From positions 18,530-82,529 of the forward strand of contig DCTC01000001.1 in NCBI GenBank assembly GCA_002329205.1: DNA of 64,000 bases, in the 5' to 3' direction. The notes under the pieces are model-generated. The model did not search any database. It worked only from the letters and a program-made list of their open reading frames with translations, and was not told where the DNA came from. Origin of the DNA: Candidatus Roizmanbacteria bacterium UBA1450. Its GTDB lineage: Bacteria > Patescibacteriota > Microgenomatia > UBA1406 > GWC2-37-13. Positions 16,394 to 38,442 of this stretch are shown here, one piece after another (within the stretch, counting starts at the first letter, position 1; each line of letters opens with the position of its first letter). The translations under genes were made by a program, and so were the position numbers.

Positions 16394-16402
16394 CTTATAG
16401 AT

Positions 16403-16432
16403 GGTCCGGGGGGACGTATGTTCCCCCGGACC
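16403..16432. terminator. GC-rich hairpin between convergent genes
   Basis: GGTCCGGGGG (16403-16412) pairs with CCCCCGGACC (16423-16432) around a 10-nt loop. The hairpin lies between the stops of the 15863..16393 (+) and 16444..16863 (-) genes. Confidence 0.65.
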
Positions 16433-16443
16433 TGTATTCACAT

Positions 16444-16863: not shown

Positions 16864-16987
16864 TCCTACATTCTATCATCTGAGATAAAGTAACCTAACA
16901 ATTCTTACTCCGTACATACATCGATATTATTTTGAATTTACTTTCGTAACCGATTATGTATTTACATTATCCAGTATGTTGATTTAA

Positions 16988-18079: not shown

Positions 18080-18178
18080 TAACAGAAATAATTTACTTTC
18101 TTATTTTTGCTACTTACACATTTTTAACCGCTATCTTTCATAAGTTTTATTATAGGAAGTTAGTATTAGCCCCATAAC

Positions 18179-20293: not shown

Positions 20294-20304
20294 AACAAAG
20301 AAAC

Positions 20305-21234: not shown

Positions 21235-21251
21235 TCTTGTAGGGTTTTCCA

Positions 21252-21279
21252 GTGCTCCGGGGTGTATACCCCGGAGCAC
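21252..21279 (+). terminator. rho-independent terminator
   Basis: GTGCTCCGGGG-TGTATA-CCCCGGAGCAC hairpin followed by T-rich sequence. Confidence 0.65.
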
Positions 21280-21386
21280 GGAAAGGATTATTTATTTTAT
21301 AAAATCTTTTCCTGATAGTCTGTAAGAAAACGCAGTTTGTTTTTGGTTCTTTATAAAAGGATTTGAAACAAATTACGTAGGATATT

Positions 21387-23423: not shown

Positions 23424-23909
23424 TTATTTTTTCTTTATTTCTTCGGGACGGATAAACTTGATATATCCAAGCGCCAGAGAAACAGCAAATCCAATAGTTA
23501 CCACAATAAAACGGAACATATTGTCATCGGAAGAAAATCCGCGTATGATACTGTAAATCAATAAGAGCAAGCCTCCCAGCAGTAACCCGTCTGCAATGAG
23601 ATTTATCTTTTTCAGAAAAGTAAGACTGATTACCAAAGCAATGACAGCAATAGCAATCGAGATACTGGAAACATTTCGGTTATATCTATTGTGTTTTTCC
23701 TGATATTGCTTCAACTCCTCCTGGAAAGCTTCTTCTTTTTCGAGATATTCCTGATATTTCGGATCGTCTGATTCAAGCGGAGCAGAAAATCGCATGCCGA
23801 CATCATTCTCTGGATAAGCGGGTTCCGGATAAAAAGCTGCGATCCCGACACCGACAAACGTTGCAAAGAGAATTCCAATAAAAATGGTGTAGATGAATTT
23901 GATACTCAT
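23424..23909 (-). CDS. hypothetical membrane protein
   Basis: 161 aa with about four hydrophobic helices and a charged E/K-rich loop. No family recognised. Confidence 0.6.
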   Translation of the reverse strand: MSIKFIYTIFIGILFATFVGVGIAAFYPEPAYPENDVGMRFSAPLESDDPKYQEYLEKEEAFQEELKQYQEKHNRYNRNVSSISIAIAVIALVISLTFLKKINLIADGLLLGGLLLLIYSIIRGFSSDDNMFRFIVVTIGFAVSLALGYIKFIRPEEIKKK

Positions 23910-23911
23910 AT

Positions 23912-24541
23912 TTATTTATCTGATTTTGCACCCGGCAGAATTTTGTATACCATACCGGCTAGAATGCCTCCGACAATCGGACCGATAAGATAGAGAGTCA
24001 CAGTATCCATGCTACGGCCGATGGCCTGAAAATTATAAAGATACGGACTGACTCCTACAGCAGGATTGAAGACACCTCCAGAAGTTGGGCCTCCGACAAA
24101 AGCGGCAGTCATAAGCGTCAAACCGATAGCCGCTCCATAATAATGATTATTTTTAACCTTATCTGTTACCGCAACATGAAGGACGACACTGGCGAGCAAA
24201 AAGGTATACAGAACCTCTACGACCAGTGCATTACTTATTTTTACCGTTTCGACTATCGATGGCGTAAATGAACTGCCATTGATCAAAGCGATAGCTGCCG
24301 CCGCAGCAATACCTCCGAGCATTTGTACGACCATATATTGTATTGCAGCGGGAAACTTTATTTTCCCGTTCAGAAGCACGGCGATTGTAACCGCAGGATT
24401 GTAATGTGCACCGGAAATATAACCGCCCATATATACGAGTGCAGCAAGAACACCACCTATTGCAAAAGGATTTAAGGTTAAACCAACAGTCAAAACCAGA
24501 AAGAATGTGCCGATAAACTCGATGACATTTCGTCGAAGCAT
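23912..24541 (-). CDS. aqpZ: aquaporin/MIP-family channel
   Basis: Two NPA boxes (SGAHYNPAVT and GGVFNPAVG) within a six-TM layout. Confidence 0.9.
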   Translation of the reverse strand: MLRRNVIEFIGTFFLVLTVGLTLNPFAIGGVLAALVYMGGYISGAHYNPAVTIAVLLNGKIKFPAAIQYMVVQMLGGIAAAAAIALINGSSFTPSIVETVKISNALVVEVLYTFLLASVVLHVAVTDKVKNNHYYGAAIGLTLMTAAFVGGPTSGGVFNPAVGVSPYLYNFQAIGRSMDTVTLYLIGPIVGGILAGMVYKILPGAKSDK

Positions 24542-24580
24542 AAGTGAGTTATCAATTGGTAATAAGAAGAGTATATCAAA

Positions 24581-26383
24581 TTACATATAACCTTTTCTCT
24601 GCAGATTGAAATAAGAAGCATAAGTGCCATTTGGTATTGCAATAAGCTGTTCGTGTGTACCGCGCTCTACCAGTTCTCCGCGCTTCATGACAAAAATATC
24701 ATTGGCGGTACGTACTGTCGAAAAACGATGTGAAATAAAAATAAGACTTTTTCTTCTGTACAGCTCGTTTAGGTTTTTAAATATCTCAGCCTCTGCATCT
24801 GCATCAATGTTGGCTGTAGGTTCGTCCATTATAAGCAGCGGAGCATTGCGATAAATAGCTCGTGCTATAGCTACCTTCTGCCATTGTCCACCTGACATAT
24901 CGACCCCGCCTTCAAACCACCTTCCCAGGTACTGATCGTATCCTTTTGGCAGATCTTCCAAAATACCTAAAGCCTGGGCTTTTTCGAGAGCTTCTTCAGC
25001 TCGTTTTTCAGAAGAGACTGTATGCTTGCCGAACATGATATTTTCACGCAGCGTGAGGAAATATCGTGCATAGTCCTGAAAAAGTACCCCGAGGTGTCGG
25101 TACCAACTTTCCAGCTCAATTGATCTCAGATCCTTTCCGTCAATAAGAATAGCTCCTTCTGTCGGATCATAAAACCGGAAAAGCAATTTGATAATAGTAC
25201 TTTTGCCTGCACCGTTATGTCCTACAATCGCAACATTCTGACCCTTTTCTATCGTAAATGAAATATTTTTCAAAGAATAATGATTGGAACCGGGATACTG
25301 AAAACTTACCTCGGTAAATTCAATCCTGCGCGGCTCTTCTGATTCGAATATGAATGCATTATCATCTATTTCAATTTTATTTCTTATGGACATAAGTTTA
25401 AAAAAATCATTTAAATAAAACCCGTTTTCATATACTGATCCGAAGTTGATAAGTAAGCTGGATATCTGTCCGGAAAATGCAAATAGAATATTGAGAAAGA
25501 ACGTAAAGTCTCCAATTGAGTAGGTATTTCCGATCCCCTGTAAAAAATGCGTGAGTGAGAAATAAATCGCGACAGGAATAAGGACAAAACTAGCAGTCGA
25601 CAGGATACTGTATGTAAGCATCGGACGCTGATAGTCTTTTATTATCTGATCCTGGAGCTCTTTTGCTTTGTGCACAAAATATCCGCGCAGTTCATATATC
25701 TTCATTTCGGAAAGGGTATTGAAGTTTGTAAAAATTGACTTTAAATACCATAAATAGTTGGAATCGTGCGCATGCTCCGAAGCACTGGAGAATGAGATAT
25801 TTGCATATTTTGCCCGCAGATAATACACCGGAGCAGATATCAGTGCAAGCAAAATAAAATAATATGGACTGAACTGGAGTGCAATAATTAATGAAAAAAA
25901 GATTGATGCTACATTGCTGATCATGGCATTCAATCTGTTGAGTATTTCGGGAAGCCGGAAAGCATAGGTGTTTTCAATTTTTGCAATCAGATTCCGGACT
26001 TCACCGTTTTCGAGGTTTGCAAAATCCAACCGTCCGATTTTCTCCATAAAACGCCTGGTCAGGATGTTTTGCAATTTCGTTCGCATGAAGTAATCAAGAA
26101 AATACTGATTGAAAGTAAAATTCACAAAACGGGATAAATATTCAAAAAAAAGATAGGTGACAATAATGGTGAATAAAATATCTACTGGATCTGAAAGATT
26201 GAGGCCGATAGATTCTGCGACTGCATCAATCATCAGCTTATAGAAGTAGTAAACAACAAAAAGCAGTATGGCGCCCAGAGCAGATGTTGTGAAATACGCG
26301 ACAAGCAGTTTTCTATCTTCACGCCACGCAAGCTGAAGCAGCTTCCAGATATTGGTCACAAGTTGTTCTGTCTTTTTGATCAT
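24581..26383 (-). CDS. ABC transporter, fused permease/ATP-binding exporter (MsbA/MdlB-like)
   Basis: Six-TM N-terminal half. Walker A GHNGAGKST, signature SGGQWQKVAIARA and Walker B LLIMDEPT. Confidence 0.9.
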   Translation of the reverse strand: MIKKTEQLVTNIWKLLQLAWREDRKLLVAYFTTSALGAILLFVVYYFYKLMIDAVAESIGLNLSDPVDILFTIIVTYLFFEYLSRFVNFTFNQYFLDYFMRTKLQNILTRRFMEKIGRLDFANLENGEVRNLIAKIENTYAFRLPEILNRLNAMISNVASIFFSLIIALQFSPYYFILLALISAPVYYLRAKYANISFSSASEHAHDSNYLWYLKSIFTNFNTLSEMKIYELRGYFVHKAKELQDQIIKDYQRPMLTYSILSTASFVLIPVAIYFSLTHFLQGIGNTYSIGDFTFFLNILFAFSGQISSLLINFGSVYENGFYLNDFFKLMSIRNKIEIDDNAFIFESEEPRRIEFTEVSFQYPGSNHYSLKNISFTIEKGQNVAIVGHNGAGKSTIIKLLFRFYDPTEGAILIDGKDLRSIELESWYRHLGVLFQDYARYFLTLRENIMFGKHTVSSEKRAEEALEKAQALGILEDLPKGYDQYLGRWFEGGVDMSGGQWQKVAIARAIYRNAPLLIMDEPTANIDADAEAEIFKNLNELYRRKSLIFISHRFSTVRTANDIFVMKRGELVERGTHEQLIAIPNGTYASYFNLQRKGYM

Positions 26384-26417
26384 ACTGCTTTTTAGTCATA
26401 TGATTGGTTATGGGATA

Positions 26418-26600
26418 TTATCGCGAACTTCTCTTCGGTTCACGGGATCCCATATAGTCGAGTCCTCCAAGGATAGCAAAGACTGCAAAAATCACGGTAG
26501 CTGCAATGATTCCGCTTTGAGTTGAGGAAAATAGACCGAGAAATGTCAATGCGGTGAGAACTCCCATTCCAAACCACATTATCCAGTTTAAGAGTGTCAT
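26418..26600 (-). CDS. small hypothetical membrane protein
   Basis: The ORF in the track starts at a TTG at 26612; the ATG at 26600 is the more likely start. It has two hydrophobic helices. Weak call. Confidence 0.35.
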   Translation of the reverse strand: MTLLNWIMWFGMGVLTALTFLGLFSSTQSGIIAATVIFAVFAILGGLDYMGSREPKRSSR

Positions 26601-26773
26601 ATGAGAATTCAATTTCTAATTGAGATAACTATAAGTGGTAAATACGAGGTAGTCGTAAGATACAAGTAAAATGTTTGTAAAGAATAAAAGATTGATATGA
26701 CAATCTATCTTCTCTTACATCCCTCATACTCCACATTTACCTCTTCTTCAATCCGTTCACTTATTCTTCAACC

Positions 26774-27733
26774 ATGCACACGAACAAACCGATGAAAGTC
26801 TTTACCTGGCACATACACGGTACGTATCTGTATTACCTCACACAGACCCCGGTTGAATTTTATCTACCAGTCACGGGTGATAACAGTCCGGGATATGGAG
26901 GTCGGGCCGGAACATTTCCGTGGGGGAGACATGTGCATGAAATCCATGTGGATGATGTGAAGAGGCAGGATTTTGATGTTATTTTATTTCAATCTGATGA
27001 GAATTACACAAGGGATCAATTTGAGCTATTTACGGAATCTCAACGCAACAACTCAGCATTGATTTATCTGGAGCATGATCCTCCTCAAAAACATCCGACT
27101 AATACCAAGCATATCGTCGCGGACAAAAGAGTTCTTATTGTTCATGTCACGCATTTCAACAATCTGATGTGGGACAACAACGGCTGCCGCACGAAGGTGA
27201 TTGAACACGGCGTGAAGATCGATCCGGAGGCCATATATACAGGGGAAAAAGAAAAAGGGATTGTAGTGATAAACAATATTTCAAAACGTGGCAGAAGACT
27301 GGGGTTTGATATCTACCAAAAGATACAGCAAGAGATACCTCTTGAATTGGTAGGTTTGAACTCACAAGATGTCGACGGAGGATTGGGTGAAATTCCACCG
27401 CATAAGATATCAACGTTTATCGGACAATACCGTTTTTTCTTTAACCCGATCCGATACACAAGCCTGGGTCTGGCCTTATGCGAAGCTATGACAGTCGGAA
27501 TGCCAATCATTGGCTTGGCTACGACTGAAATGGTAACGGCAGTTCAAAATAACTATAACGGTTATGTTGATACTGATGTAAACCGGATTATCCTTCAGAT
27601 GCATAAATTGTTGGAGGATCACAAACTGGCCAAAGAATGGGGGCGAAACGCCGCGATACAGGCGCACACAAAATGGAACATAACCCGTTTTACCAATGAG
27701 TGGCTTGAGACTTTCAAAGAAGTTACCAATTAA
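26774..27733 (+). CDS. glycosyltransferase (GT-B fold, GT4-like C-terminal half)
   Basis: The C-terminal FFNPIRYTSLGLALCEAMTVGMPIIGLATTEM resembles the GT4 E-x7-E region. It is the first gene of the heptose cluster. Confidence 0.65.
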   Translation: MHTNKPMKVFTWHIHGTYLYYLTQTPVEFYLPVTGDNSPGYGGRAGTFPWGRHVHEIHVDDVKRQDFDVILFQSDENYTRDQFELFTESQRNNSALIYLEHDPPQKHPTNTKHIVADKRVLIVHVTHFNNLMWDNNGCRTKVIEHGVKIDPEAIYTGEKEKGIVVINNISKRGRRLGFDIYQKIQQEIPLELVGLNSQDVDGGLGEIPPHKISTFIGQYRFFFNPIRYTSLGLALCEAMTVGMPIIGLATTEMVTAVQNNYNGYVDTDVNRIILQMHKLLEDHKLAKEWGRNAAIQAHTKWNITRFTNEWLETFKEVTN

Positions 27734-27742
27734 CAACAACTT

Positions 27743-29650
27743 ATGAAAAGACAGATAGCATTTATCAGCGAACATGCATCTCCGCTTGCTGCGCTAGGAG
27801 GTGTGGACAGCGGAGGTCAAAATGTATACGTAGCGCAAGTTGCCAGACATCTCTCCAATCTGGGTTATCAAATTGATATGTACACCCGTTGGGATGATCC
27901 ATCTATGCCGCAAATAGTCAATTGGAGCCCTGGAGTCCGCGTTATTCATATAGAAGCCGGACAGAAATCATTTATCCCCAAAGAACAAATGCTTCCTCTT
28001 ATGGATGCATTCACAAAGAATATGCTTTCATTCATGGAATGCGAAGAAATTGAATACAAACTCATCCATGCGCATTTTTTTATGTCAGGACTTGTGGCTG
28101 CAAACATAAAAAAAAGAAAAGGTATTCCGTATGTTATTACATTTCATGCATTGGGTGAGGTACGAAAAAAATTCCAAGGTGAAGCAGATCATTTTCCTCC
28201 GGAGCGATATGACGTCGAAAAGAAAGTCGCGTTTGAAGCAGATAAAGTTATTGCCGAATGCCCTCAGGATAGAGAAGATTTGATCAATCTGTATGATGTC
28301 AATCCAGACAAAATTATAATGATCCCGGCAGGATTTAGTCCGCATGAATTTTATCCAATTGATCAGCTCGTCGCACGCAATGTACTCGGACTTGATCCGA
28401 AAGAACATATCATTCTTCAACTCGGCCGTATGGTACCGCGAAAAGGCGTTGAGAATGTTATCCGAGGAGTACACAGCCTCATTGTGAAGCATGATATGTC
28501 GGCACGTTTGCTGATAGTTGGAGGTGAATCCGATGATGCCGACCCGAAAAAAACACCTGAGATCAAACGATTGTTGCATATAGCACAAGAGCTTGAAATA
28601 GAAAACCATATCACTTTTGTCGGAAGACGTGACCGCAATCAATTAAAGTACTACTACGCTGCATCAGATGTTTTTGTCACAACTCCCTGGTATGAACCGT
28701 TCGGTATCACACCCCTTGAAGCAATGGCTTGCGGTATACCGGTCGTCGGTGCGCGGGTAGGGGGTATCAAATATTCAATACGCGAAGGGAAAACCGGTTA
28801 TCTGGTCTCCCCTGAGAACCCCGAAGAACTGAGCGAAAGACTCAGAGACATACTCTCAAACCCTCAGTTAAAACTGTTTTTTAAGCAAAATGCAATTGAA
28901 CGTGCAAACAGTTTGTTTACCTGGGCCAATATAGCGCATAGCATGTCCAGGCTTTATGAAGAAATTGTTTCTCTTACAGACATTTCTGTAGAGGATACGA
29001 TGTCACTCATAGAACACAATTTTGAACAGTTGATTGAGTCAGCCAATCTTTCAAGAGAACTTCTGCAAATCCCGATCGCAGATGCCGCTCATACTGTAGC
29101 ACATGCCCTGTCCCGAGGGAAAAAACTGCTTGCATGCGGCAACGGCGGCAGTGCGACTGATGCTCAGCATTTTGTCGGAGAGCTTGTCGGCCGCTTTCAA
29201 ATAGACGGAAGAAAGGCGTTGCCTGCTCTTGCTCTCAATGCAGACCCGGCTATTATCACAGCCTGGGCAAATGATTACTCCTACGATGATGTCTATGCAC
29301 GTCAGGTAGAAGCGCATGGTTCGCCCGGAGATATCTTTATGGGTATCAGCACAAGCGGAAGTTCCCGCAATATCATCAGAGCCTTTCGCCGAGCGCGAGA
29401 ACGGGGACTTATCACCATCGCACTTCTCGGCAAACAAGGAGGTCCTGCTCGAAATCTTGCCGACATTGCGATCGTTGTTCCATCGCTTGATACCACTCGC
29501 ATTCAGGAGATTCATATAAATATTATTCATACTCTTTGTGAAGTGATCGAACGGAAAATCATGTCAGAACAACTAGATGTCGAATCGTCTGTCCAAACAC
29601 TCAATCTATTTTCAGGAAGCTACAATCCCATACGACAAACACATTATTAA
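27743..29650 (+). CDS. fusion protein: GT4 glycosyltransferase + SIS-domain sedoheptulose-7-phosphate isomerase (GmhA)
   Basis: The N-terminal roughly 420 aa carry GGVDSGGQNVYV and EPFGITPLEAMACGIPVV, which are GT4 motifs. The C-terminal roughly 190 aa carry LLACGNGGSATDAQHFVGELVGRF, WANDYSYDDVYARQV, GISTSGSSRNII and RIQEIH, which are GmhA motifs. Confidence 0.85.
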   Translation: MKRQIAFISEHASPLAALGGVDSGGQNVYVAQVARHLSNLGYQIDMYTRWDDPSMPQIVNWSPGVRVIHIEAGQKSFIPKEQMLPLMDAFTKNMLSFMECEEIEYKLIHAHFFMSGLVAANIKKRKGIPYVITFHALGEVRKKFQGEADHFPPERYDVEKKVAFEADKVIAECPQDREDLINLYDVNPDKIIMIPAGFSPHEFYPIDQLVARNVLGLDPKEHIILQLGRMVPRKGVENVIRGVHSLIVKHDMSARLLIVGGESDDADPKKTPEIKRLLHIAQELEIENHITFVGRRDRNQLKYYYAASDVFVTTPWYEPFGITPLEAMACGIPVVGARVGGIKYSIREGKTGYLVSPENPEELSERLRDILSNPQLKLFFKQNAIERANSLFTWANIAHSMSRLYEEIVSLTDISVEDTMSLIEHNFEQLIESANLSRELLQIPIADAAHTVAHALSRGKKLLACGNGGSATDAQHFVGELVGRFQIDGRKALPALALNADPAIITAWANDYSYDDVYARQVEAHGSPGDIFMGISTSGSSRNIIRAFRRARERGLITIALLGKQGGPARNLADIAIVVPSLDTTRIQEIHINIIHTLCEVIERKIMSEQLDVESSVQTLNLFSGSYNPIRQTHY

Positions 29651-29664
29651 TTCTGTCTATTGTT

Positions 29665-30378
29665 ATGAACAACTTGAAAGGAAAAACAGCTTTGGTTACC
29701 GGAGGTAGCCAGGGACTAGGAGAACAGATTACACGTGTACTTGCAAATTCAGGTGTCCAAGTCGTTATTGGAGATATACAGGAAGATAAAGCACGTGAAC
29801 TATCTCAAACCATTGAGTATGTATCTGCTGTAAAACTTGATGTGAGTCGTGAAGACAATGTCAAAGAAGTTATCGAACGGATTGTAAAAATGCACGGAAA
29901 GCTGGATATCGTCGTCAACAATGCCGGTATTGATGTGACCAAATCAGTTGAAGACCTTTCTGTCGGGGAGTTTGAGCTGGTGGTGAAAGTAAACCTCATC
30001 GGTCCGTTTCTTGTCTCCAAATATGCTCTTGCGGAGATGAAAAAGAAGAAGAAAGGACATATTGTCAATATCGCGTCAACGGCAGCGAAACGTTCCTGGG
30101 CCAATGCATCCGCTTATCATGCGAGTAAATGGGGGCTTCTCGGTATGAGCCATGGCATGTATGTGGAAGCACGTGAACAGAATATAAAAGTATCAGCAGT
30201 TGTTGCTGGCGGCATGAGAACGCCGTTTATTCTTGAACGCTTTCCAGACACGCCACTGGATAAATTACAGGACCCCAGAAACGTAGCAGAGACTGTGAAG
30301 TTTGTCCTCATGCAGCCTGAGGAGACAATTATACCGGAAGTTATGGTACTACCGCTGATGGAATCCTCATGGCCATAA
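29665..30378 (+). CDS. classical short-chain dehydrogenase/reductase (SDR)
   Basis: TGGSQGLG (the TGxxxGxG motif), NNAG and the catalytic YHASK. At 237 aa it is a classical SDR, not an extended one. Confidence 0.85.
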   Translation: MNNLKGKTALVTGGSQGLGEQITRVLANSGVQVVIGDIQEDKARELSQTIEYVSAVKLDVSREDNVKEVIERIVKMHGKLDIVVNNAGIDVTKSVEDLSVGEFELVVKVNLIGPFLVSKYALAEMKKKKKGHIVNIASTAAKRSWANASAYHASKWGLLGMSHGMYVEAREQNIKVSAVVAGGMRTPFILERFPDTPLDKLQDPRNVAETVKFVLMQPEETIIPEVMVLPLMESSWP

Positions 30379-30425
30379 GAAGGTTTAGGCGGTAGTTACT
30401 AGTTATTATAAACATATTGGAAACT

Positions 30426-30974
30426 ATGAACAAAGCAATTTTTATTGACAAGGACGGAACACTCATCAAAGACATTCCATACAATATCAATCCTGAGAAA
30501 ATGAAACTCAATCCGGGTGCAGTGGATTTGCTGCGATATGCCCAAAAAAAAGGTTACAAGATCATTATTATTTCGAATCAGTCAGGAGTCGCAAGAGGAT
30601 TATTTAAAGAAAATGAGCTCAAAAAGGCCATAGCACGTCTTGAAAAACTGCTCAATAAAAGACATATTTCCATCGATGATTTTTTGTACTGTCCGCACCA
30701 CCCGGAAGGCAAAATAATAGATTATGCATTTTCTTGTGATTGCCGTAAACCGTCACCAGGCTTAATTATGAAGGCAAAAACCAAATATAACATTGACACA
30801 TCTCAGTCATGGATGATAGGAGATATCCTCAACGATATTGAGGCCGGAAATAATGCTGGCTGTTATACGGCGCTTGTCCACAACGGAGGTGAAACAATTT
30901 GGGAAACAGGGAACGCAACGAGACTACCTCATGTGATCGTATCACGTCTTGATCAATTGATAAAAATTATTTAG
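30426..30974 (+). CDS. gmhB: D-glycero-D-manno-heptose 1,7-bisphosphate phosphatase (HAD-IIIA)
   Basis: DKDGT nucleophile motif, Zn-site pattern CPHHP...CDCRKP, and GDILNDIEAG. The start is taken at the ATG at 30426 rather than the TTG at 30417. Confidence 0.85.
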   Translation: MNKAIFIDKDGTLIKDIPYNINPEKMKLNPGAVDLLRYAQKKGYKIIIISNQSGVARGLFKENELKKAIARLEKLLNKRHISIDDFLYCPHHPEGKIIDYAFSCDCRKPSPGLIMKAKTKYNIDTSQSWMIGDILNDIEAGNNAGCYTALVHNGGETIWETGNATRLPHVIVSRLDQLIKII

Positions 30975-30986
30975 CTATTTTCGATT

Positions 30987-32471
30987 ATGGCCACTTACCA
31001 ACATATTCTCAATAAATTTCATGATCTGAAGGTACTTGTTATCGGCGAAATGATGCTCGACTGTTATTTTAAAGGGACTTCTCAGCGTTTAAGCCGTGAA
31101 GCTCCTGTTCCAATCGTCGATCTCAAGGAAAAAGTTGATGTTCCAGGAGGAGCTGCCAATACGGCGCTCAACGTTGCTGCATTGGGGGCTCAAACATTTT
31201 TTCTCTCTGCAGGAGGAGATGATTATGAAGGAAACAAAATTCGCATGCAGCTTTCCGAAAAAAACGTTGATGTGAAGGGGGTTTATTTTGAAAATAAGCG
31301 TGAAACTATGACTAAAAAACGAATTATTTCAGATGATCAGCTATTGCTCCGGTATGACAACGGGTCAATGGGTAGAATTTCCAAAGATACGGAAATTCGC
31401 ATCATCCATTATCTGGACCAAAAATTCAAATTATTTGATGTCATCATTCTTTCAGACTATGATTACGGTATCTTTACTGACAATATCATTCGCCTGATCG
31501 CTTCGCTGCAAGATAAATATCACAAAGTGCTCATACTGGACTCAAAAAAACTAAGCCGGTTCAAACAAATTGAACTGACTGCAGTAAAACCCAACTATGA
31601 ACAGGTTGTTGAGCTATTGAACATTCAGCCTGTTCAGGAACATCGAGTAGATCAAATTCTCCAGCACGGCACAGATATTTTCGACCATGTACATACTCGG
31701 ATTGCCGCGTGTACCATTGATATCGACGGATGTGTTGTTTATGAACGTCACGCAAAACCGACAATCGTTCCGACCACTCCTATGCCCAACGCGAACGCTT
31801 CGGGCGCAGGAGATACGTTTGTGAGTGCTCTTTCCTTGGCTCTCGGTGCGGGTGCGCCCACACCTGAAGCGGCTATGATTGCATCTGCCGCGTCTTCAGT
31901 CGTCGTACAGCGGGATGGAACTACTCAATGTTCTTTTCATGAACTTGAAAAGAAACTGACTCCCCATAAAAAAATCGTATATAACATTGATGATCTTCAA
32001 CTTCTTGTACATCTGTACCGAAAAGAACAAAAGAAGATACTCTTTACCAACGGTTGTTTTGATATTATTCATTCCGGTCATATTTCATTTTTGAAAGAAG
32101 CAAAAACGATGGGAGATATCCTTATAGTCGGACTAAATGATGATGCAAGCGTCAAAGAAGTAACAGGCTATTTTCCTGAACATCCGATCGAAAAAAGAAT
32201 TGAAGTGCTAAAACAGCTCAATATTATTGATCATATCATTCCATTTCACGAGTCCATGCCTTCCGAACTTATAGCAGCAATCCGTCCGGATGTTTTTGTA
32301 AAAGGAGGAAATTACACAACAGAAGACATACCTGAAAGATCAATCGTTAAAAAATATAAGGGCGAAATCAAAATATTGCGCTTTCACACCGGCAAAAAGC
32401 AAACCGGATCGCGACCGGAAATGTTGCACTCCCAAATAAGCAAATTTCCGATTTCCCCCTTCCTTTTGTAA
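30987..32471 (+). CDS. hldE: bifunctional heptose 7-phosphate kinase / heptose 1-phosphate adenylyltransferase (HldE/RfaE)
   Basis: The N-terminal PfkB kinase domain carries VLVIGEMMLDCYFKGTSQRLSREAPVPIV and GAGDTF. The C-terminal cytidylyltransferase-like domain carries FTNGCFDIIHSGHISFL. Confidence 0.9.
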   Translation: MATYQHILNKFHDLKVLVIGEMMLDCYFKGTSQRLSREAPVPIVDLKEKVDVPGGAANTALNVAALGAQTFFLSAGGDDYEGNKIRMQLSEKNVDVKGVYFENKRETMTKKRIISDDQLLLRYDNGSMGRISKDTEIRIIHYLDQKFKLFDVIILSDYDYGIFTDNIIRLIASLQDKYHKVLILDSKKLSRFKQIELTAVKPNYEQVVELLNIQPVQEHRVDQILQHGTDIFDHVHTRIAACTIDIDGCVVYERHAKPTIVPTTPMPNANASGAGDTFVSALSLALGAGAPTPEAAMIASAASSVVVQRDGTTQCSFHELEKKLTPHKKIVYNIDDLQLLVHLYRKEQKKILFTNGCFDIIHSGHISFLKEAKTMGDILIVGLNDDASVKEVTGYFPEHPIEKRIEVLKQLNIIDHIIPFHESMPSELIAAIRPDVFVKGGNYTTEDIPERSIVKKYKGEIKILRFHTGKKQTGSRPEMLHSQISKFPISPFLL

Positions 32472-32526
32472 CAAGATTTATTATTTTCCACTACAATAGA
32501 AATATATCTATCAATTTCTCAATACT

Positions 32527-33036
32527 ATGGAGGATAAAATTATTACGGATTGGGATTATGCAGCCAACCTGATTTACAATTTTCGATCAATAAATAAAGA
32601 AATTGTATTTACAAATGGAGTTTTTGACATTATTCATCCGGGACATGTTGCTTATTTACAACAGGCACGGGAATTGGGGGATGTACTGGTAGTTGGAGTC
32701 AATACGGATGAAAGCGTCAGGCAATTCAAAGATCCAAGACGGCCAATCAACACACTCAAACAACGGATGACTGTGCTTGCGGGTCTCTCCATGGTCAGCT
32801 ATGTAGTTCCATTCGGAGAACCAACTGCCGTGGAAATTATCGGAGCACTCAAGCCGACTGTATATGTCAAAGGAGGGGATTATAAGGAGGAAGATATTCC
32901 AGAAGCGGCAACAGTGAGACAGCTTGAAGGTACTGTGAAGATACTTCCGTACAATAGCGAATTCTCAACAACTCAAATTATTAATACTATCCTGCAAAAA
33001 TATTCGAATGCACAGCCAGTGGAGCAGACACAATAA
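32527..33036 (+). CDS. stand-alone heptose 1-phosphate adenylyltransferase-like protein (RfaE domain II type)
   Basis: FTNGVFDIIHPGHVAYL, KDPRRPIN, VKGGDY and the C-terminal FSTTQII are all present, matching the canonical HldE domain II motifs. Confidence 0.8.
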   Translation: MEDKIITDWDYAANLIYNFRSINKEIVFTNGVFDIIHPGHVAYLQQARELGDVLVVGVNTDESVRQFKDPRRPINTLKQRMTVLAGLSMVSYVVPFGEPTAVEIIGALKPTVYVKGGDYKEEDIPEAATVRQLEGTVKILPYNSEFSTTQIINTILQKYSNAQPVEQTQ

Positions 33037-34114
33037 CATCCTTATCGTTCGCCCTGACAATATGGGTGACGTATTGATGTCCACTCCGGCGATACATGCA
33101 TTCAAACAATCATTCCCTGCAAGCAAATTGACTCTCCTTACCTCACAGGCTGGATTTGCTGCCGCCCCGATTCTTGCTGATATTGATGATTATATTGTTT
33201 TTGATCTTCCCTGGGTTGCCAATGAGAACGCCATCACGGTACACGGGATCAATACACTTATCAGCGACCTGAAAAGGAAACAGTTTGATGCAGCAATTAT
33301 ATTTACAGTATACAGTCAGAGTCCGTTGCCGACAGCTATGCTTTGCTATCAGGCAGGGATAAAACATATCGTAGCTTATTGTCGCGAAAATCCCTATGCT
33401 CTTATTTCTCACTGGATTCCTGATCGCGAACCATTGTATGAAATTCAGCATCAGGTGATACGGGATATAAATCTGGTCAAATCAATAGGTGCCCGATCTC
33501 GTGATACAAAGCTACGGATTTCGATTCCGGAATATGCTCAATCAGAGATTCACCGGTTTCTTGCCGAGCACGACATTGATACCACCAAACCGTGGCTCGT
33601 CATGCATCCCGGAGTGAGCGAAAAACGTCGGCAGTACCCGATCGAACAATTTGCTCTAGTCGGCAGGTTATTAAAGGAGAAACTCAATTTTCAACTGGTC
33701 TTAACCGGTACCAAATCAGAAAAAAAATTGCTCAAAACCATGGCAGGAGTTATCGGTTCTCCTGTTGCAATAGCAGATAATCTGTCAATGGAACTTTTTG
33801 CAGCACTAATTAAACAAACGAATTGCCTGATTGCCAACAATACCGGACCTGTACATATTGCAGCAGCGGCACAAACCCCTGTTGTTGTGTTATATGCGTT
33901 GACAAATCCTCAACATTTGCCATGGAAAACCCCTTATCGAGCGCTCCTTTTTGATGTCCCGGAAGAAAAAAAAAGTAACAATATCCTGCTTCAATACACC
34001 TATGATCGCTATTTTAAAAAAATTCACACCCCAACTCCTGAAATGATCGTCCAAGCAGTACAGAATCTCTTGAAAGGCAAGTCGGACGTACAGAAACAAG
34101 TAATCGAACTGTAA
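33008..34114 (+). CDS. glycosyltransferase family 9 (heptosyltransferase-like), second copy
   Basis: NILIVRPDNMGDVLMSTPAIHAFKQSFP (GT9 N-terminal motif), MHPGVSEKRRQYP and ANNTGPVHIAAAAQTPVVVLY. It overlaps the previous gene by 29 nt. Confidence 0.8.
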   Translation: MHSQWSRHNNILIVRPDNMGDVLMSTPAIHAFKQSFPASKLTLLTSQAGFAAAPILADIDDYIVFDLPWVANENAITVHGINTLISDLKRKQFDAAIIFTVYSQSPLPTAMLCYQAGIKHIVAYCRENPYALISHWIPDREPLYEIQHQVIRDINLVKSIGARSRDTKLRISIPEYAQSEIHRFLAEHDIDTTKPWLVMHPGVSEKRRQYPIEQFALVGRLLKEKLNFQLVLTGTKSEKKLLKTMAGVIGSPVAIADNLSMELFAALIKQTNCLIANNTGPVHIAAAAQTPVVVLYALTNPQHLPWKTPYRALLFDVPEEKKSNNILLQYTYDRYFKKIHTPTPEMIVQAVQNLLKGKSDVQKQVIEL

Positions 34115-34198
34115 ATAGCTCGATCATACGTTGCCGCCGAACCCAAACAACGACTACCTGCTACGCACTTTATATGGTAAAATAGTGAATCAAATATC

Positions 34199-34272
34199 GG
34201 GCGTATAGCTCAGTTGGCTAGAGCGTTACATTGACATTGTAAAGGTCTCAGGTTCAAGTCCTGATACGCCCA
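34199..34272 (+). tRNA. tRNA-Val (anticodon GAC)
   Basis: Acceptor GGGCGTA/TACGCCC, D arm GCTC-AGTTGGCTA-GAGC, anticodon stem-loop TTACA-TTGACAT-TGTAA, T arm TCAGG-TTCAAGT-CCTGA. Confidence 0.9.
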
Positions 34273-34407
34273 CACCGCCATATACCTTAATGTGTTACTA
34301 TCATACAAAGCAGTCTCAGGTTTCCCGATTCGCTTTGCTTCTCGGGATCTGTTTTCCGTAAGCCGATTCCCCAAAACAATTTGAATCAGCAACGGCAAAC
34401 TTGACAC

Positions 34408-34423
34408 GTCCTGATACGCCCAC
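34408..34423 (+). repeat. direct repeat of the tRNA-Val 3' end (GTCCTGATACGCCCAC)
   Basis: The 16-mer at 34258-34273 (T-arm 3' strand plus acceptor 3' strand) recurs exactly at 34408-34423. The 10-mer GTCTCAGGTT of the T arm also recurs, at about 34311. Confidence 0.7.
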
Positions 34424-34431
34424 TATTCATT

Positions 34432-34650
34432 ATGGAATATACTCCAAACAGCCATGAAGATCAGATTCTGCTTCTCAGATACCAGATGATTCTCATGCAG
34501 CTTGCAGGTATGTCCCAGCACCCAGGTTTCTCATTTCTTGAGACCACCGAAGAGAGAGATCCTATTGCCGATGCATGGGAACAGGCTGACCATCTCAAAA
34601 ATGAGCTTGACAAGAGGGGTATTACAATACCTGATTCTGATATACTATAA
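34432..34650 (+). CDS. small hypothetical protein
   Basis: 72-aa ORF with an ATG start that ends 5 nt before trpS. No family recognised. Confidence 0.45.
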   Translation: MEYTPNSHEDQILLLRYQMILMQLAGMSQHPGFSFLETTEERDPIADAWEQADHLKNELDKRGITIPDSDIL

Positions 34651-34655
34651 CTGCT

Positions 34656-35669
34656 ATGTCCAAACGCATTCTTTCCGGTATTACTCCAAGTTCAGAAAAA
34701 GGCCTACACTTAGGCAATTTTTTGGGTGCTGTAACACCACATCTTGAGTTTCAGGGTCAAGGGGAATGCTTTTATTTTATCGCTAACCTCCACGCACTGA
34801 ACAATGTTTTTGATCCCGAACAGGTACAAAATAATACGCTCAACATCTTCATCGAGTATCTTGCCTTTGGTCTTGATCCTCAAAAAACGACATTCTACAT
34901 TCAAAGCGATATTCCTGCTATTCCATACCTTCAAACCATTCTCAATAATGCAGTTACCGTAGCAGAACTACAGAGAATGCATGCTTATAAGGACAAACTT
35001 CAGAATGATGTATCACAGGACGCGATTAATTTCGGACTTTTCTCATATCCCGTACTGATGTCTGCTGATATTCTTCTGTTCAAGCCCGATATTATCCCTG
35101 TGGGTGAAGATCAAACGCAGCATGTAGAAATTTGCCGGGATATTGCCAGATCCTTTAATACGCGCTACGGAAATGTCCTGAAAGTACCTGAGCTCTATGT
35201 CAAAAAGGATGTTGCCCGAGTGCCCGGTATCGATGGTAAACGGAAAATGAGTAAATCTCTGGGAAATGATATACCGATATTTGCTGACGAACAGATTGTC
35301 AAAAAACAGATTATGGCTATCACCACCGATCCGGCTCGCATTCATCCCACAGATCCAGGCAACCCGGAGAAGAATGTCGCATTTAGCTTTATGCGTTTAC
35401 TCGAATATAACACTATCAAATCAGATACCATGCCGACACTTGAAGATATGGAAGAACGGTACCGTTCAGGCACGATAGGAGATGTCGAAATCAAGAAAAC
35501 CTTATTTACCGTATTTATGGAACGCTTTAGTGAAATAAGAAAGAAGAAAGAAGAATTGAAGCACAATATGGATTATATTATCGAGCTGCGGAAAAAAGGT
35601 GCTATACGGGCCAACGAAATTGCCGAAAAAACGATAGAAGAAGTCAAAGCAGCTGTCGGAGTGTTATAA
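34656..35669 (+). CDS. trpS: tryptophanyl-tRNA synthetase
   Basis: Class I HIGH-type motif (GLHLGNFLGA) and KMSKS (KRKMSKSLGN). The 337-aa size is typical of TrpRS. Confidence 0.9.
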   Translation: MSKRILSGITPSSEKGLHLGNFLGAVTPHLEFQGQGECFYFIANLHALNNVFDPEQVQNNTLNIFIEYLAFGLDPQKTTFYIQSDIPAIPYLQTILNNAVTVAELQRMHAYKDKLQNDVSQDAINFGLFSYPVLMSADILLFKPDIIPVGEDQTQHVEICRDIARSFNTRYGNVLKVPELYVKKDVARVPGIDGKRKMSKSLGNDIPIFADEQIVKKQIMAITTDPARIHPTDPGNPEKNVAFSFMRLLEYNTIKSDTMPTLEDMEERYRSGTIGDVEIKKTLFTVFMERFSEIRKKKEELKHNMDYIIELRKKGAIRANEIAEKTIEEVKAAVGVL

Positions 35670-35966: not shown

Positions 35967-36482
35967 ATGATATCTCCGTCAAGTAATCGAGGTTTTACGC
36001 TCATTGAAATGATTATTGTCATTATCATACTCGGTATTTTAGTCACAGTCGGTTCCGCATCGTATCGGGGCGTTGTTGAAGAAGCACGGAGATCTGAAGC
36101 ACGGAGGAATCTGGATGATATAAAAAAAGCAATTGAAACGGCACGTGTTAAAAGCGGAAAAAGACTCAATCAGATCACCGGCAGCAACTGCAGTTTTTGC
36201 ACTGCCTGCGGAGGAGACCTTCGGGATGTACCTGACACGCATGAATGTGTTGTCCGGTGGAATCGGCTACTGACAAATGTATCGGCAGATGGCTATGGAA
36301 ATATTTCAAAATTTAAAAGAGATCCCTGGGGAAGTCCGTATGTAATTGATGAAAATGACGGTGAGTATGTCACAAATCCTTGCAGACGGGACTGGATAGG
36401 AAGTGTCGGACCTGACGGCACATACGGCACGTCAGATGATATCATAATCCGCTTTACCATGATCCACCCTGATTGTTATTAA
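35967..36482 (+). CDS. type IV pilin-like protein (prepilin N-terminal methylation motif), Cys-rich
   Basis: SSNRG/FTLIEMIIVIIILGILV is a class III signal peptide with Glu at +5. The mature part contains six Cys, including CSFCTAC. Confidence 0.8.
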   Translation: MISPSSNRGFTLIEMIIVIIILGILVTVGSASYRGVVEEARRSEARRNLDDIKKAIETARVKSGKRLNQITGSNCSFCTACGGDLRDVPDTHECVVRWNRLLTNVSADGYGNISKFKRDPWGSPYVIDENDGEYVTNPCRRDWIGSVGPDGTYGTSDDIIIRFTMIHPDCY

Positions 36483-36640: not shown

Positions 36641-36709
36641 ATGAAACGATATACTATCTTTTACCAATTTCACACAGATTGTTATATACAATTAATTTTT
36701 ACCGTATGA
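36641..36709 (+). CDS. candidate 22-codon upstream ORF coupled to thrS
   Basis: An ATG sits directly after the T run. The 3' arm of the hairpin (GGAGG) lies about 10 nt upstream and could act as its Shine-Dalgarno sequence. The stop TGA overlaps the thrS ATG (GTATGA). The call is speculative. Confidence 0.2.
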   Translation: MKRYTIFYQFHTDCYIQLIFTV

Positions 36710-38442
36710 AAGATCAAGCTTACCTCAATGAACTCAGACATTCGGCTGCGCATTTGCTGGCAGCTGCCGTATTGGAATTGTATCCGCAGACAAAACTGAC
36801 TATCGGACCCCCTATTGAGGACGGCTTTTACTATGATTTTGAATTTGTTGAACCGATTTCAGAAAATGATCTTCAAAAGATTGAACAAAAAATGCGTGAA
36901 CTTGTCAAAAAATGGCACGGATTTGAAAGAAATGAAGTGTCTGTCGAAGAAGCATTGAAAGCATATGAAAATAACCCATACAAACAGGAGCTTATTCAAG
37001 AGATAGCAGACAAGGGGGAAACGGTATCTTTTTATCAATCAGGAGAATTTGTTGATCTCTGCCGAGGCGGACATATCGCCAAACCGAATGAAGAGTTGAA
37101 GCATTTCAAGCTGCTTTCCATTGCAGGTGCCTACTGGCGTGGAAGTGAGAAAAACACGATGCTTACCCGTATTTACGGTACGGCTTTCCCGACAAAGGAA
37201 GAACTGGATGCATATATATTGCAGCGTGAAGAAGCTAAAAAGCGCGATCATAAAAAACTGGGGAAAGAACTTGATCTATTTGTCTTTTCTGATCTTGTCG
37301 GACCCGGACTACCCTTGTGGACACCAAAAGGAACTCTTGTCCGTAATCTGCTGGATGACTATGTCTGGCAGTTGAGAAAAGAAAAAGGATATGCTCGTGT
37401 TGAGATCCCTCATATAACCAAAAAAGAACTGTATGAAACATCAGGACATTGGGCAAAATTTTCAGATGAGCTTTTTAAAATTACGACCCGTGAAGGACAT
37501 GAGTTTGCAATGAAACCCATGAACTGTCCTCATCATACCCAGATTTATGCAAGACGCAAATGGAGCTTCAGAGAGCTTCCACAAAGATATGCCAATACAA
37601 CTACCTGCTACAGGGATGAACAGACAGGAGAACTGTCAGGACTGTCACGAGTCCGGGCTTTCAGCCAGGATGATGCACATGTATTTGCACGCTTTACACA
37701 GGTAAAAGAGGAATTCCTGAAAATCTGGGATATCGTTCAGACATTCTACAGTTCATTCGGATTTGACCTCAAAATCAGGCTATCCCTGCATGATCCCCAG
37801 GAACCTGACAAATATCTCGGAGGCGAGGAAAAATGGAAAGAGGCTGAACATATGCTTCGTGAAATTGTACAGGAAAAGAAAGCTGACGCATATGAAGCGA
37901 CAGGTGAAGCGGCATTTTACGGACCCAAATTAGATTTTATGGCCAAAGATTCTTTGGGCCGAGAATGGCAAGTTGCGACAATCCAGCTCGACATGAATAT
38001 GCCTGAACGCTTTGACCTCTCGTGCGTGAATGAAAAAGGCGAAGAAGAGCGCATTGTTATGATCCACGCCGCAATTATGGGCTCCATTGAACGATTTCTT
38101 TCTATCATTATCGAGCACTATGCTGGCGCATTCCCGTTCTGGCTATCACCAGTACAAGTCCGCATTATCCCGATTGCCGAACGCCACAATGAATACTCGT
38201 ACCAAGTACTCCGCTCCTTAGAACAGGTCGGTGTGCGCTCCGAAGTGGATGACAAATCAGAATCCATGCAAAAGAAAATTAGAAATGCTCAACGAGAGAA
38301 AATACCTTACATGCTCATCGTCGGAGACCGAGAAATGGAGTCAAAGGAAGTCAATGTACGTGCACGGGACGGAAAAACCGAGAATATGAAGGTGGAAGAT
38401 TTTACAGAAATGGCAGAAGAAAAGATAAAAAACAAATCCTAA
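36706..38442 (+). CDS. thrS: threonyl-tRNA synthetase (no N-terminal TGS domain)
   Basis: ORF trimmed to the ATG at 36706. It starts within the editing domain (RHSAAHLL HxxxH, DLCRGGH). The class II core carries FRELPQRY and RVRAFSQDDAHVF, and an anticodon-binding domain follows. Confidence 0.9.
   Translation: MKDQAYLNELRHSAAHLLAAAVLELYPQTKLTIGPPIEDGFYYDFEFVEPISENDLQKIEQKMRELVKKWHGFERNEVSVEEALKAYENNPYKQELIQEIADKGETVSFYQSGEFVDLCRGGHIAKPNEELKHFKLLSIAGAYWRGSEKNTMLTRIYGTAFPTKEELDAYILQREEAKKRDHKKLGKELDLFVFSDLVGPGLPLWTPKGTLVRNLLDDYVWQLRKEKGYARVEIPHITKKELYETSGHWAKFSDELFKITTREGHEFAMKPMNCPHHTQIYARRKWSFRELPQRYANTTTCYRDEQTGELSGLSRVRAFSQDDAHVFARFTQVKEEFLKIWDIVQTFYSSFGFDLKIRLSLHDPQEPDKYLGGEEKWKEAEHMLREIVQEKKADAYEATGEAAFYGPKLDFMAKDSLGREWQVATIQLDMNMPERFDLSCVNEKGEEERIVMIHAAIMGSIERFLSIIIEHYAGAFPFWLSPVQVRIIPIAERHNEYSYQVLRSLEQVGVRSEVDDKSESMQKKIRNAQREKIPYMLIVGDREMESKEVNVRARDGKTENMKVEDFTEMAEEKIKNKS

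Follow-up and report, generated by a model that had tools for sequence, protein, structure and literature searches.

Heptose has been studied mostly as a building block of lipopolysaccharide (LPS) and, in the form of ADP-heptose, as an agonist of innate immunity. Only recently were the enzymes of its biosynthesis shown to be present well outside the Gram-negatives. What do organisms other than Gram-negative bacteria do with it? The question is raised by a 64,000-nucleotide stretch of the genome of Candidatus Roizmanbacteria bacterium UBA1450 (GenBank assembly GCA_002329205.1, contig DCTC01000001.1; hereafter the window), which carries at positions 26774-34114 a cassette of genes predicted to make and transfer heptose. 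With a further glycosyltransferase (GT) gene upstream, the locus has four glycosyltransferases in all and can be approached as a definite, widely conserved module for the supply and transfer of the sugar. We propose that the cassette supplies ADP-D-glycero-D-manno-heptose (ADP-D,D-heptose), as the homology and motifs of its enzymes suggest, and we infer that it also assembles an oligosaccharide that contains heptose and is probably primed on a sugar phosphate; taken as a whole, we give this reading an even chance of being correct.

The cassette consists of seven open reading frames (ORFs), all on the + strand, which are separated by 9, 14, 38, 12 and 55 nt or, in the case of HldC and GT9b, overlap by 29 nt; its initial annotation as co-oriented and tightly packed is thus accurate. 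That annotation had spoken of eight genes while itself naming seven; the ORFs give seven, and so do independent gene calls on the identical Logan contig from three sequencing runs. The identities proposed for the genes hold, each assignment being backed by Pfam and NCBIfam. Counts of promoters and terminators over positions 16300-34800 equal the shuffled background, and the operon status of the cassette is therefore based on spacing and synteny. The cassette genes, the upstream GT9 gene and the downstream boundary are as follows (values are E-values unless given in bits):

16988-18079, + strand: GT9a, a GT9-family protein (PF01075, 6.7e-36) with the signature DTGPLH and a C-terminal CxxCH...CGH insertion; best solved match 3TOV.
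26774-27733, + strand: short GT-B glycosyltransferase of 319 aa (Glycos_transf_1, 2e-09, over the C-terminal nucleotide-sugar-binding half only).
27743-29650, + strand: GT4-GmhA fusion of 635 aa (GT4, 1e-41; SIS/GmhA, TIGR00441, 4e-58).
27743-28978, + strand: GT4 half of the fusion, of the sucrose-phosphate-synthase/MshA clade (PDB 6KIH and 3C48/3C4Q), with predicted acceptor-site residues K80, Y105, T133, R141 and R155.
29000-29650, + strand: GmhA half of the fusion, a sedoheptulose-7-phosphate isomerase of the SIS fold (TIGR00441, 4e-58; NF010546, 6.5e-63).
29665-30378, + strand: classical short-chain dehydrogenase/reductase (SDR) of 237 aa (adh_short, 7e-51; motifs TGxxxGxG, NNAG and YxxxK).
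30417-30974, + strand: GmhB-like phosphatase of the HAD-IIIA type (4e-44; DKDGT motif and CxH...CxC RKP zinc loop, here CPH...CDC-RKP).
30987-32471, + strand: HldE, bifunctional (2.5e-99).
30987-31976, + strand: HldE domain I, a predicted heptose-7-phosphate kinase of the PfkB family (TIGR02198, 6.9e-71; PfkB, 8.7e-26; GAGD motif).
31989-32471, + strand: HldE domain II, a degenerate adenylyltransferase half (TIGR02199, 152 bits against a cut-off of 181.5).
32527-33036, + strand: stand-alone HldC of 169 aa, a heptose-1-phosphate adenylyltransferase (TIGR02199, 185.3 bits against a cut-off of 181.5).
33008-34114, + strand: GT9b, a GT9-family protein (PF01075, 1.4e-23) with the signature NTGPVH; best solved match 3TOV.
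34199-34273, + strand: tRNA-Val(GAC), the downstream boundary of the cassette; the same tRNA lies 3' of a relic HldC in a related genome (L106, below).

The threonyl-tRNA synthetase of the window (ThrRS, 36679-38442) is 81% and 70% identical to proteins of Candidatus Roizmanbacteria and all its other named matches are from Patescibacteria, while one 940,728-bp NCBI contig encodes proteins identical to those of the window. The Candidate Phyla Radiation (CPR), together with the Chloroflexi, has been placed in one monoderm clade (bioRxiv 10.1101/2021.05.31.446380). These sequence relationships place the host among the Roizmanbacteria-like Patescibacteria and in that clade, from which it follows that the product of the cassette is almost certainly not LPS. 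Among the proteins of the window there are no outer-membrane or LPS genes, the remainder being housekeeping. The monoderm features pointed out initially are all present, namely an LPXTG protein (704 aa, 18179-20293, with LPTTG, a transmembrane helix and a tail of basic character at its C-terminus), a class A penicillin-binding protein (46576-49125) and a type IV pilus with PilB, PilT, PilC, PilM and pilins and, in the window, no secretin.

The GT4-GmhA fusion is found in at least 120 protein clusters at 52-62% identity, with named sources among Chloroflexota, Anaerolineae, Dehalococcoidia, Saccharimonadales, Nitrosospira and Ohtaekwangia, and a metagenome scan revealed at least 593 relatives. 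The order [GT9a-like][GT-B][GT4-GmhA][SDR][GmhB][HldE][GT9b] recurs in cultured Nitrosospira multiformis (GCA_900111585.1), a Chloroflexi metagenome-assembled genome (MAG), a Patescibacteria MAG, a 62%-identical relative (L025), Bacteroidota-like contigs and many metagenome contigs; the same gene order in dozens of independent loci argues that the arrangement is not due to chance. When ORFs were clustered from 42 sources (41 loci, designated by L numbers, and the window), the families found beside GT4 were GT9 (35), GT-B (28), GmhB (28), SDR (21) and HldE (19), all of them lower bounds as many contigs are truncated. In 28 of the 42 sources the short GT-B gene directly precedes the GT4 gene, GT9b closes the cassette in nearly all loci, and GT9a-like genes lie directly upstream of the cassette in most of the other loci. 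There are also reduced cassettes in which GT-B, an unfused GT4, the HAD phosphatase, GT9b and GT9a are kept while GmhA and HldE are lacking from the vicinity. These suggest that the invariant centre is the pair of GT4 and phosphatase or, taken more widely, the four transferases and the phosphatase. The cassette is evidently a portable, horizontally mobile module that crosses phyla and not the peculiarity of one lineage.

It is also, by the same kind of comparison, dispensable. In L106, a 1.45-Mb Roizmanbacteria chromosome (CP065004.1), the cassette is gone while both flanks show synteny with those of the window (on one side MiaB, GT9a, the repeat proteins, MIP and PCC; on the other tRNA-Val, the tryptophanyl-tRNA synthetase TrpRS, a pilin and ThrRS), and what is kept is a single HldC-like gene with decaying motifs (GPVN, AGDY and STR) upstream of the same tRNA-Val. 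An island insertion at tRNA-Val in the window was considered and rejected, since the decaying HldC beside the same tRNA and the syntenic flanks fit better with loss in this close Roizmanbacteria relative than with a recent insertion. The altered parts of L106 (11083-12468 and 13707-15344) comprise a disrupted surface-protein gene, treated below, the decaying HldC left by the cassette and, after it, about 1 kb of ORF-free DNA before tRNA-Val, with a short direct repeat reading 'ASAGWRMSYTP' in one frame.

Other versions of the cassette carry additional genes. Those of the reduced type add a NodU/CmcH-like carbamoyltransferase (15 loci), a GT2 enzyme with C-terminal membrane segments (11) and a major facilitator superfamily (MFS) transporter (6), the loci being L044, L049, L050, L062, L064, L071, L072, L077, L085, L087, L090, L095, L105 and L004; the carbamoyltransferase is carried by Bacteroidota-like versions. 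The Nitrosospira multiformis cassette (L023, FOHI01000001.1) adjoins TamA/TamB and contains a GT2 gene and a gene of the inositol-monophosphatase family (17033-17833), and given the MshA-like GT4 an inositol-phosphate acceptor is possible in this copy. A Candidatus Woesearchaeota MAG (L014, 8767-13361, JAHFPP010000002.1) has GT9, GmhA, a PfkB heptose kinase, GmhB and a stand-alone HldC adjoining one another; this contig of a DPANN archaeon adds a further lineage lacking a wall or an outer membrane in which a heptose supply-and-transfer cluster occurs.

How far can the supply of heptose be read from the enzymes? In the GmhA half of the fusion, H476, E480, Q588 and H596 (a His-x3-Glu ... Gln-x7-His set), which from GmhA structures we take to be the zinc/catalytic site, are unchanged in 24 of 24 fusion proteins. 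[quoted passage not shown] The latter scores 238.9 bits against a cut-off of 345 on TIGR02198, which is still its best-matching family by a wide margin. The 7-phosphate would be removed by the GmhB-like phosphatase, which falls slightly under both cut-offs of its families (NF006506, 150.2 against 178 bits; TIGR00213, 139.6 against 149.6 bits) and scores higher with the beta-type model (150 bits) than with the alpha-type model (109 bits). Its gene lies 3' of the GT4 gene, directly or past the SDR, also in cassettes without GmhA and HldE. The absence of the epimerase HldD (an extended SDR), remarked on initially, is confirmed for the window: tblastn with an approximate E. coli HldD query sequence gave a best E-value of 1.9, and a Rossmann-motif scan found as the sole Rossmann-type N-terminus that of the classical SDR. 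The donor would thus be the D,D form of the heptose. The SDR has only generic classical SDR matches and, being present in 21 of the 42 sources and missing from several otherwise complete cassettes, is an optional member.

The last step, nucleotidyl transfer, is encoded twice in the window. Aligned with its relatives, HldE domain II of the window and of L025 retains HxGH, has lost RPIN and the C-terminal STT, and reads GGNY for GGDY. A frameshift behind the odd C-terminus was excluded, as L025 has the same divergent ending (...LHS...FLL) and identical internal substitutions. The stand-alone HldC has intact motifs (HPGH, RPIN, GGDY and YNSEFSTT) and matches Burkholderia pseudomallei HldC (PDB identifier 5X9Q) at 1e-33; (F/L)xxGxSTT is the signature of heptose nucleotidyltransferases (Tang et al. 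2024, as quoted in PMC11461863). A C-terminal half is present in 16 cassette HldE proteins. In 14 of these, RP[IV]N, GGD/NY and STT/STS are retained, and no stand-alone HldC accompanies them. RPIN and STT are missing only from the other two, those of the window and L025, and only these two loci have the stand-alone gene. As motif loss is confined to the two genomes that carry HldC, the comparison indicates that HldC is the working enzyme and a functional replacement of the transferase half of HldE, the fused domain being a relic or a scaffold. HldC, and not the motif-less half of HldE, would then carry out the nucleotidyltransferase step, and the pair would be a clear natural case of domain decay after duplication, with the stand-alone copy taking over the function. 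An Arg at the 'STTR5' position is described as conferring CTP/UTP promiscuity and as permitting the synthesis of CDP- and UDP-heptose (PMC11461863). This position is Phe in HldC of the window, Tyr in HldC of L025 and Arg in most other cassette enzymes (Arg before STT is seen in the HldE C-termini of L004, L023, L024, L029, L037, L047-L050, L056 and L087), a difference that suggests that the nucleotide carrier of the heptose may vary by lineage.

The nature of the product depends more on the glycosyltransferases. The closest solved structures to the GT4 half of the fusion are those of Thermosynechococcus sucrose-phosphate synthase (TeSPS; PDB identifier 6KIH, 1.2e-69) and Corynebacterium MshA (PDB identifiers 3C48/3C4Q, about 8e-68), with WaaG and PimB' among the weaker PDB matches. 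Its scores lie far below the equivalog cut-offs of both MshA (286 against 462.5) and sucrose-phosphate synthase (SPS; 140 against 576), and it is thus neither MshA nor SPS proper. SPS and MshA are soluble and glycosylate a phosphorylated sugar or cyclitol, after which a dedicated phosphatase acts on the product. Arg105 and Arg178 of TeSPS bind the acceptor phosphate (PMC7264703), and their counterparts in the alignment with this PDB match are K80 and R155 of the GT4 half. In 24 of 24 family members K80, Y105, T133 and R141 are unchanged, and R155 is conserved in 19. The SPS/MshA type of the enzyme, the retained phosphate-binding residues and the fusion to GmhA together suggest that the GT4 half glycosylates a sugar phosphate, most simply the heptose-7-phosphate formed by the fused GmhA. 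Such an acceptor would also explain why the HAD phosphatase stays beside GT4 even where GmhA and HldE are missing.

Both GT9 proteins are above the PF01075 gathering score. The signature of GT9 heptosyltransferases is D(T/S)(G/A)xxH together with an N-terminal Asp (PMC3559599); GT9a has it (GD...DTGPLH), whereas GT9b has it in part, with Asn (N279) for Asp and the His kept. This Asn is found in 30 of 30 members of the GT9b clade, in which the His is conserved. As the signature Asp of WaaC contacts O3 of the heptose (PMC3559599), its replacement suggests that GT9b may treat the donor differently or use another sugar. In the reduced-type cassettes with added genes, the GT9a signature has Cys for Asp (CTGxxH). 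Both proteins score below the cut-offs of the LPS heptosyltransferases WaaF (GT9a 84.5 and GT9b 89.8 against 134.6 bits), WaaC (80.1 and 78.1 against 185.3) and WaaQ-like (80.4 and 68.9 against 170.2). GT9a further has a CxxC(G/H)...CxH insertion at residues 315-339 (17930-18010), a putative metal-binding finger that is present in about 5 of 26 GT9a-like proteins; it is limited to the Patescibacteria and Chloroflexi versions (L005 6825-7922, L024 7302-8465 and L025 5700-6803) and missing from about 20 others. No TibC chain occurs among the PDB matches of either GT9 protein at E<0.01, and membership of the two among the bacterial autotransporter heptosyltransferases (BAHT) was rejected for this reason. 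For the short GT-B protein, PDB similarity was too weak to carry the assignment (E of about 4e-3, over the C-terminal half only).

Based on these observations, we envisage that the heptose-7-phosphate at hand (or sedoheptulose-7-phosphate) would serve as the first acceptor and that the neighbouring HAD phosphatase would then strip the phosphate, as sucrose-phosphate phosphatase (SPP) does after SPS. GT9a, and probably GT9b, would transfer heptose while the short GT-B and GT4 enzymes would add hexoses from other nucleotide sugars, so that a heptose-containing oligosaccharide would be built on an acceptor other than Kdo-lipid A; it might subsequently be exported by the ABCB-type transporter described below, attached to the wall or transferred to repeat proteins. 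Since this scheme needs only central metabolites, it would explain how the cassette could function in monoderms and diderms alike, and why its conserved core is devoid of a membrane-bound initiating enzyme, a flippase and a ligase. The core likewise contains no initiating phosphoglycosyltransferase, no polymerase and no oligosaccharyltransferase. The initial annotation had favoured a surface glycan, glycolipid or protein glycan over LPS. Its negative half is strongly supported by the monoderm taxon, the lack of LPS genes in the window, the GT9 scores under the cut-offs and the sharing of the cassette with Chloroflexota, while its positive half goes beyond the evidence. It did not include the degenerate state of the HldE transferase half, the replacement of that half by the stand-alone gene or the spread of the cassette across phyla. 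With a GT4 of the SPS/MshA type and a core without an initiating enzyme, a soluble or sugar-phosphate-primed heptoside appears at least as likely. A more specific version, in which heptose-7-phosphate is glycosylated by the SPS/MshA-like GT4, dephosphorylated and extended by GT9 with ADP-D,D-heptose, and in which in Roizmanbacteria the product or heptose may also decorate sortase-anchored repeat proteins, is one that we put forward tentatively and consider doubtful in its full detail.

Several points weigh against the proposed oligosaccharide. To our knowledge, GT9 enzymes act only on lipid-anchored or protein acceptors and not on soluble sugars, and four glycosyltransferases are many for a small soluble product. 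GT9b, lacking the signature Asp, may not use ADP-heptose at all, and the HAD phosphatase may be a plain GmhB and nothing more. The fusion is a sign that the two enzymes share a pathway and no proof that one feeds the other. R155 is replaced by Gly in 5 of the 24 family members, and the phosphate-site comparison draws on the residues of TeSPS only.

One alternative is a lipid- or wall-linked heptose glycan, that is, a glycolipid or secondary cell-wall polymer built at the inner membrane face by peripheral GT9 and GT4 enzymes, with the neighbouring ABCB-type transporter flipping or exporting it in the manner of MsbA, PglK or HepA-type exporters. This transporter is encoded upstream of the cassette:

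24581-26383, - strand: fused exporter of the ABCB type (MsbA/HepA/glucan-exporter-like), divergent from the cassette and far below equivalog cut-offs.

The LPS-type GT9 enzymes, that is, all those characterised, and many GT4 enzymes (WaaG, PimA) use membrane-anchored acceptors. The exporter, which could possibly export the product, is divergent and 72% identical at the same position in L025, another lies beside the GT4 gene in L092 and L101, and 11 loci have GT2 enzymes with transmembrane segments alongside the cassette. However, neither the window nor the conserved core contains an initiating phosphoglycosyltransferase, Wzx/Wzy, a ligase or an LCP enzyme, the exporter is missing from most cassettes including those of Nitrosospira and Chloroflexi, and SPS and MshA, to which the GT4 half is closest, act on soluble phospho-acceptors and not on lipids. 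As the exporter is generic and falls far under every curated cut-off, it was set aside as a discriminator between models. We regard this alternative as rather unlikely.

Could the acceptor instead be a protein? GT9a and GT9b might O-heptosylate Ser/Thr-rich repeat proteins in the cytoplasm before Sec export, with GT4 and GT-B extending the glycan, as a monoderm counterpart of the heptosylation of autotransporters by AAH/TibC or of the glycosylation of serine-rich repeat adhesins by GtfA/B. Candidate substrates are encoded directly after GT9a, in a three-gene operon:

18179-20293, + strand: secreted repeat protein of 704 aa with LPXTG, five repeats of about 95-100 aa and a Pro/Thr linker; no Pfam or NCBIfam match.
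20290-21234, + strand: secreted protein of 314 aa in which this repeat (IVNTGDD...NTGNNxADQNI...TGNA) occurs three times, each copy 94 aa long.
21387-23423, + strand: secreted protein of 678 aa with a DUF11/CLIPPER domain (PF01345, 2.5e-09), the third gene of the operon.

The 704-aa protein, a candidate glycosylation substrate, has 24% Ser+Thr and 13% Asn and ends in LPTTG followed by a hydrophobic segment (GPEDTITFLLAAMAVLISGDFL) and the basic tail RRTD; no sortase gene is present in the window. The family of the 314-aa protein comprises 15 clusters, of which the only named one is from Roizmanbacteria, and an AlphaFold2 run on it with the 15-sequence alignment gave an all-beta model that is unusable (mean predicted local distance difference test score of 36). 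The operon (window 18179-23423) recurs in L025 (16580-21241), L106 (7944-11802), L107 (4773-9626), L108 (8041-13047) and L109 (8122-13200), and over the six loci its proteins have about 650, 310-415 and 540-680 aa with Asn/Ser/Thr-rich repeats of about 95 aa and the motifs IxNTGDD and NTGxNxAxxNI.

Several features of this operon and of GT9a are consistent with O-heptosylation. Despite rearrangement, three related genomes have the operon beside a GT9 gene: in the window and L106 it follows GT9a, in L025 it follows GT9b. Its proteins have 20-24% Ser+Thr, up to 13% Asn and regular repeats of 94-100 aa. L106, which is without the cassette, also has the DUF11 member of the operon interrupted by a transposase of the IS1595 family, and GT9a of the monoderm cassettes has the extra CxxC...CxH insertion. 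Moreover, the heptosylation of adhesins by dedicated heptosyltransferases is established (PMC8498110). Against this, the surroundings of the operon in L107, L108 and L109 contain no GT9 or heptose gene, a match to TibC at E<0.01 is lacking for both GT9 proteins, and the scheme has no obvious role for the SPS/MshA-type GT4 and the phosphatase. Secreted Ser/Thr-rich neighbours are, among the 42 cassette sources, essentially confined to the window and L025, so protein heptosylation cannot be the general function of the cassette and would be a lineage-specific possibility. As the explanation of the locus we think it unlikely.

A heptose-containing secondary metabolite, comparable to septacidin and hygromycin B of actinomycetes, or ADP-heptose itself as the end product, seems very improbable. 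Septacidin biosynthesis in Streptomyces is fed by ADP-heptose (PMC11461863), and the SDR and, elsewhere, the carbamoyltransferase and the MFS transporter are typical tailoring and export genes; however, no enzyme that would form an aglycone (nonribosomal peptide synthetase, polyketide synthase, aminotransferase or purine-modifying enzyme) occurs in the window or the conserved neighbourhood, four glycosyltransferases favour an oligosaccharide, and secondary metabolism is scarce in Patescibacteria, whose genomes are very small. Ordinary LPS inner-core synthesis in a host with an outer membrane can be all but dismissed: GmhA, HldE, GmhB and GT9 are classical LPS-core enzymes, the cassette of the diderm Nitrosospira lies beside TamA/TamB with further GT9 genes, and the carbamoyltransferase of the Bacteroidota-like versions has a counterpart in the core locus of Pseudomonas aeruginosa, but the host belongs to the CPR and its monoderm clade, the window has a sortase substrate, a secretin-less pilus, no outer-membrane or LPS gene and no HldD, the GT9 scores fall under all LPS equivalog cut-offs, the cassette is dispensable and lost in a close relative, and identities of about 50-60% across phyla imply a horizontal spread atypical of inner-core genes.

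A role in anti-phage defence, raised by a match of the GT4 sequence to PF20706 ('GT4-conflict'), was rejected, as none of eight proteins matches a PADLOC model; the PF20706 match (48.8 bits) is also much weaker than that to the generic Glycos_transf_1 (142 bits). Elsewhere in the window, the type IV pilus genes (53223-62977) encode PilM, two small proteins, pilins, PilB, PilT, PilC and another pilin, and a pilin-like gene lies 1.9 kb 3' of the cassette (35967-36482), as it does in L106. Five ORFs of 165-572 aa have no Pfam match at E<=1e-4 (2943-4661, 4662-5159, 10638-11249, 15863-16393 and 63064-63948; E<=0.01 for 15863-16393).

Heptose pathways outside LPS producers are, as a general phenomenon, already known, and NDP-heptose enzymes are described as widespread beyond them (Tang et al. 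2024, as quoted in PMC11461863). In the literature on ADP-heptose, heptose and heptosyltransferases of CPR, Saccharibacteria, Chloroflexi and Gram-positive bacteria we found no description of the cassette. Nor does the literature searched appear to describe the fusion of the SPS/MshA type, the GT9 clade with Asn or the substitution of HldC for the HldE half. If the sugar-phosphate-primed scheme is true, GT9 would for the first time be seen to act on an acceptor that is neither lipid nor protein, and the product would be a new class of heptosides common to Patescibacteria, Chloroflexota, Nitrosospira and Bacteroidota; decoration of the repeat proteins would mark the first report of heptosylated proteins in a monoderm. 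The envelopes and host-attachment surfaces of Patescibacteria are poorly understood, and the locus points to a heptose-bearing glycan that a small family of repeat-rich surface proteins may carry or accompany. The cassette recurs in organisms with and without outer membranes, and its presence in the cultured Nitrosospira multiformis makes genetic and chemical tests feasible.

The cassette can be compared with several known systems. It shares with the ADP-heptose pathway of LPS producers the same four predicted activities leading to ADP-D,D-heptose, with intact motifs and GT9 genes encoded alongside, but differs from it in the lack of HldD in the window, the fusion of GmhA to GT4, the replacement of a degenerate HldE half by HldC, GT9 proteins that score under the WaaC, WaaF and WaaQ cut-offs, a monoderm CPR host and the lack of any lipid A or Kdo gene in the 64 kb. 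The S-layer glycan of Aneurinibacillus thermoaerophilus, which we take to be built from GDP-D-glycero-alpha-D-manno-heptose by way of the GHMP kinase HddA and the GDP transferase HddC, is likewise a case of heptose made for a non-LPS surface glycoconjugate in a monoderm, but it uses the alpha anomer, whereas the window has a PfkB kinase, the ADP (beta) branch and GT9 enzymes. AAH and TibC act in the cytoplasm, where they draw on ADP-heptose for the O-heptosylation of Ser in repeat-rich surface adhesins encoded next door. The candidate substrates in the window similarly adjoin a GT9 gene, and the extra Cys/His cluster of GT9a loosely recalls the iron finger of TibC; however, there is no sequence match to TibC, the candidates are sortase-anchored or secreted and not autotransporters, and the link is seen in three related genomes only. 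The SPS/SPP and MshA/phosphatase pairs resemble the cassette in that its GT4 half is closest to TeSPS and to MshA of Corynebacterium glutamicum (CgMshA), retains basic residues that would hold the phosphate and is followed by a gene for a HAD phosphatase, but the cassette GT4 is fused to a heptose-forming isomerase, lies among GT9 genes and is far under both equivalog cut-offs. Finally, split HldA/HldC systems, such as that of Burkholderia pseudomallei (5X9Q), also have a stand-alone heptose-1-phosphate nucleotidyltransferase with HxGH and STT; HldC of the window differs in having Phe and not Arg at the 'STTR5' position, and, unlike the split systems and the three HENase architectures set out by Tang et al. 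(2024, as quoted in PMC11461863), the window keeps a full-length HldE beside HldC, an intermediate state between the fused and the split forms.

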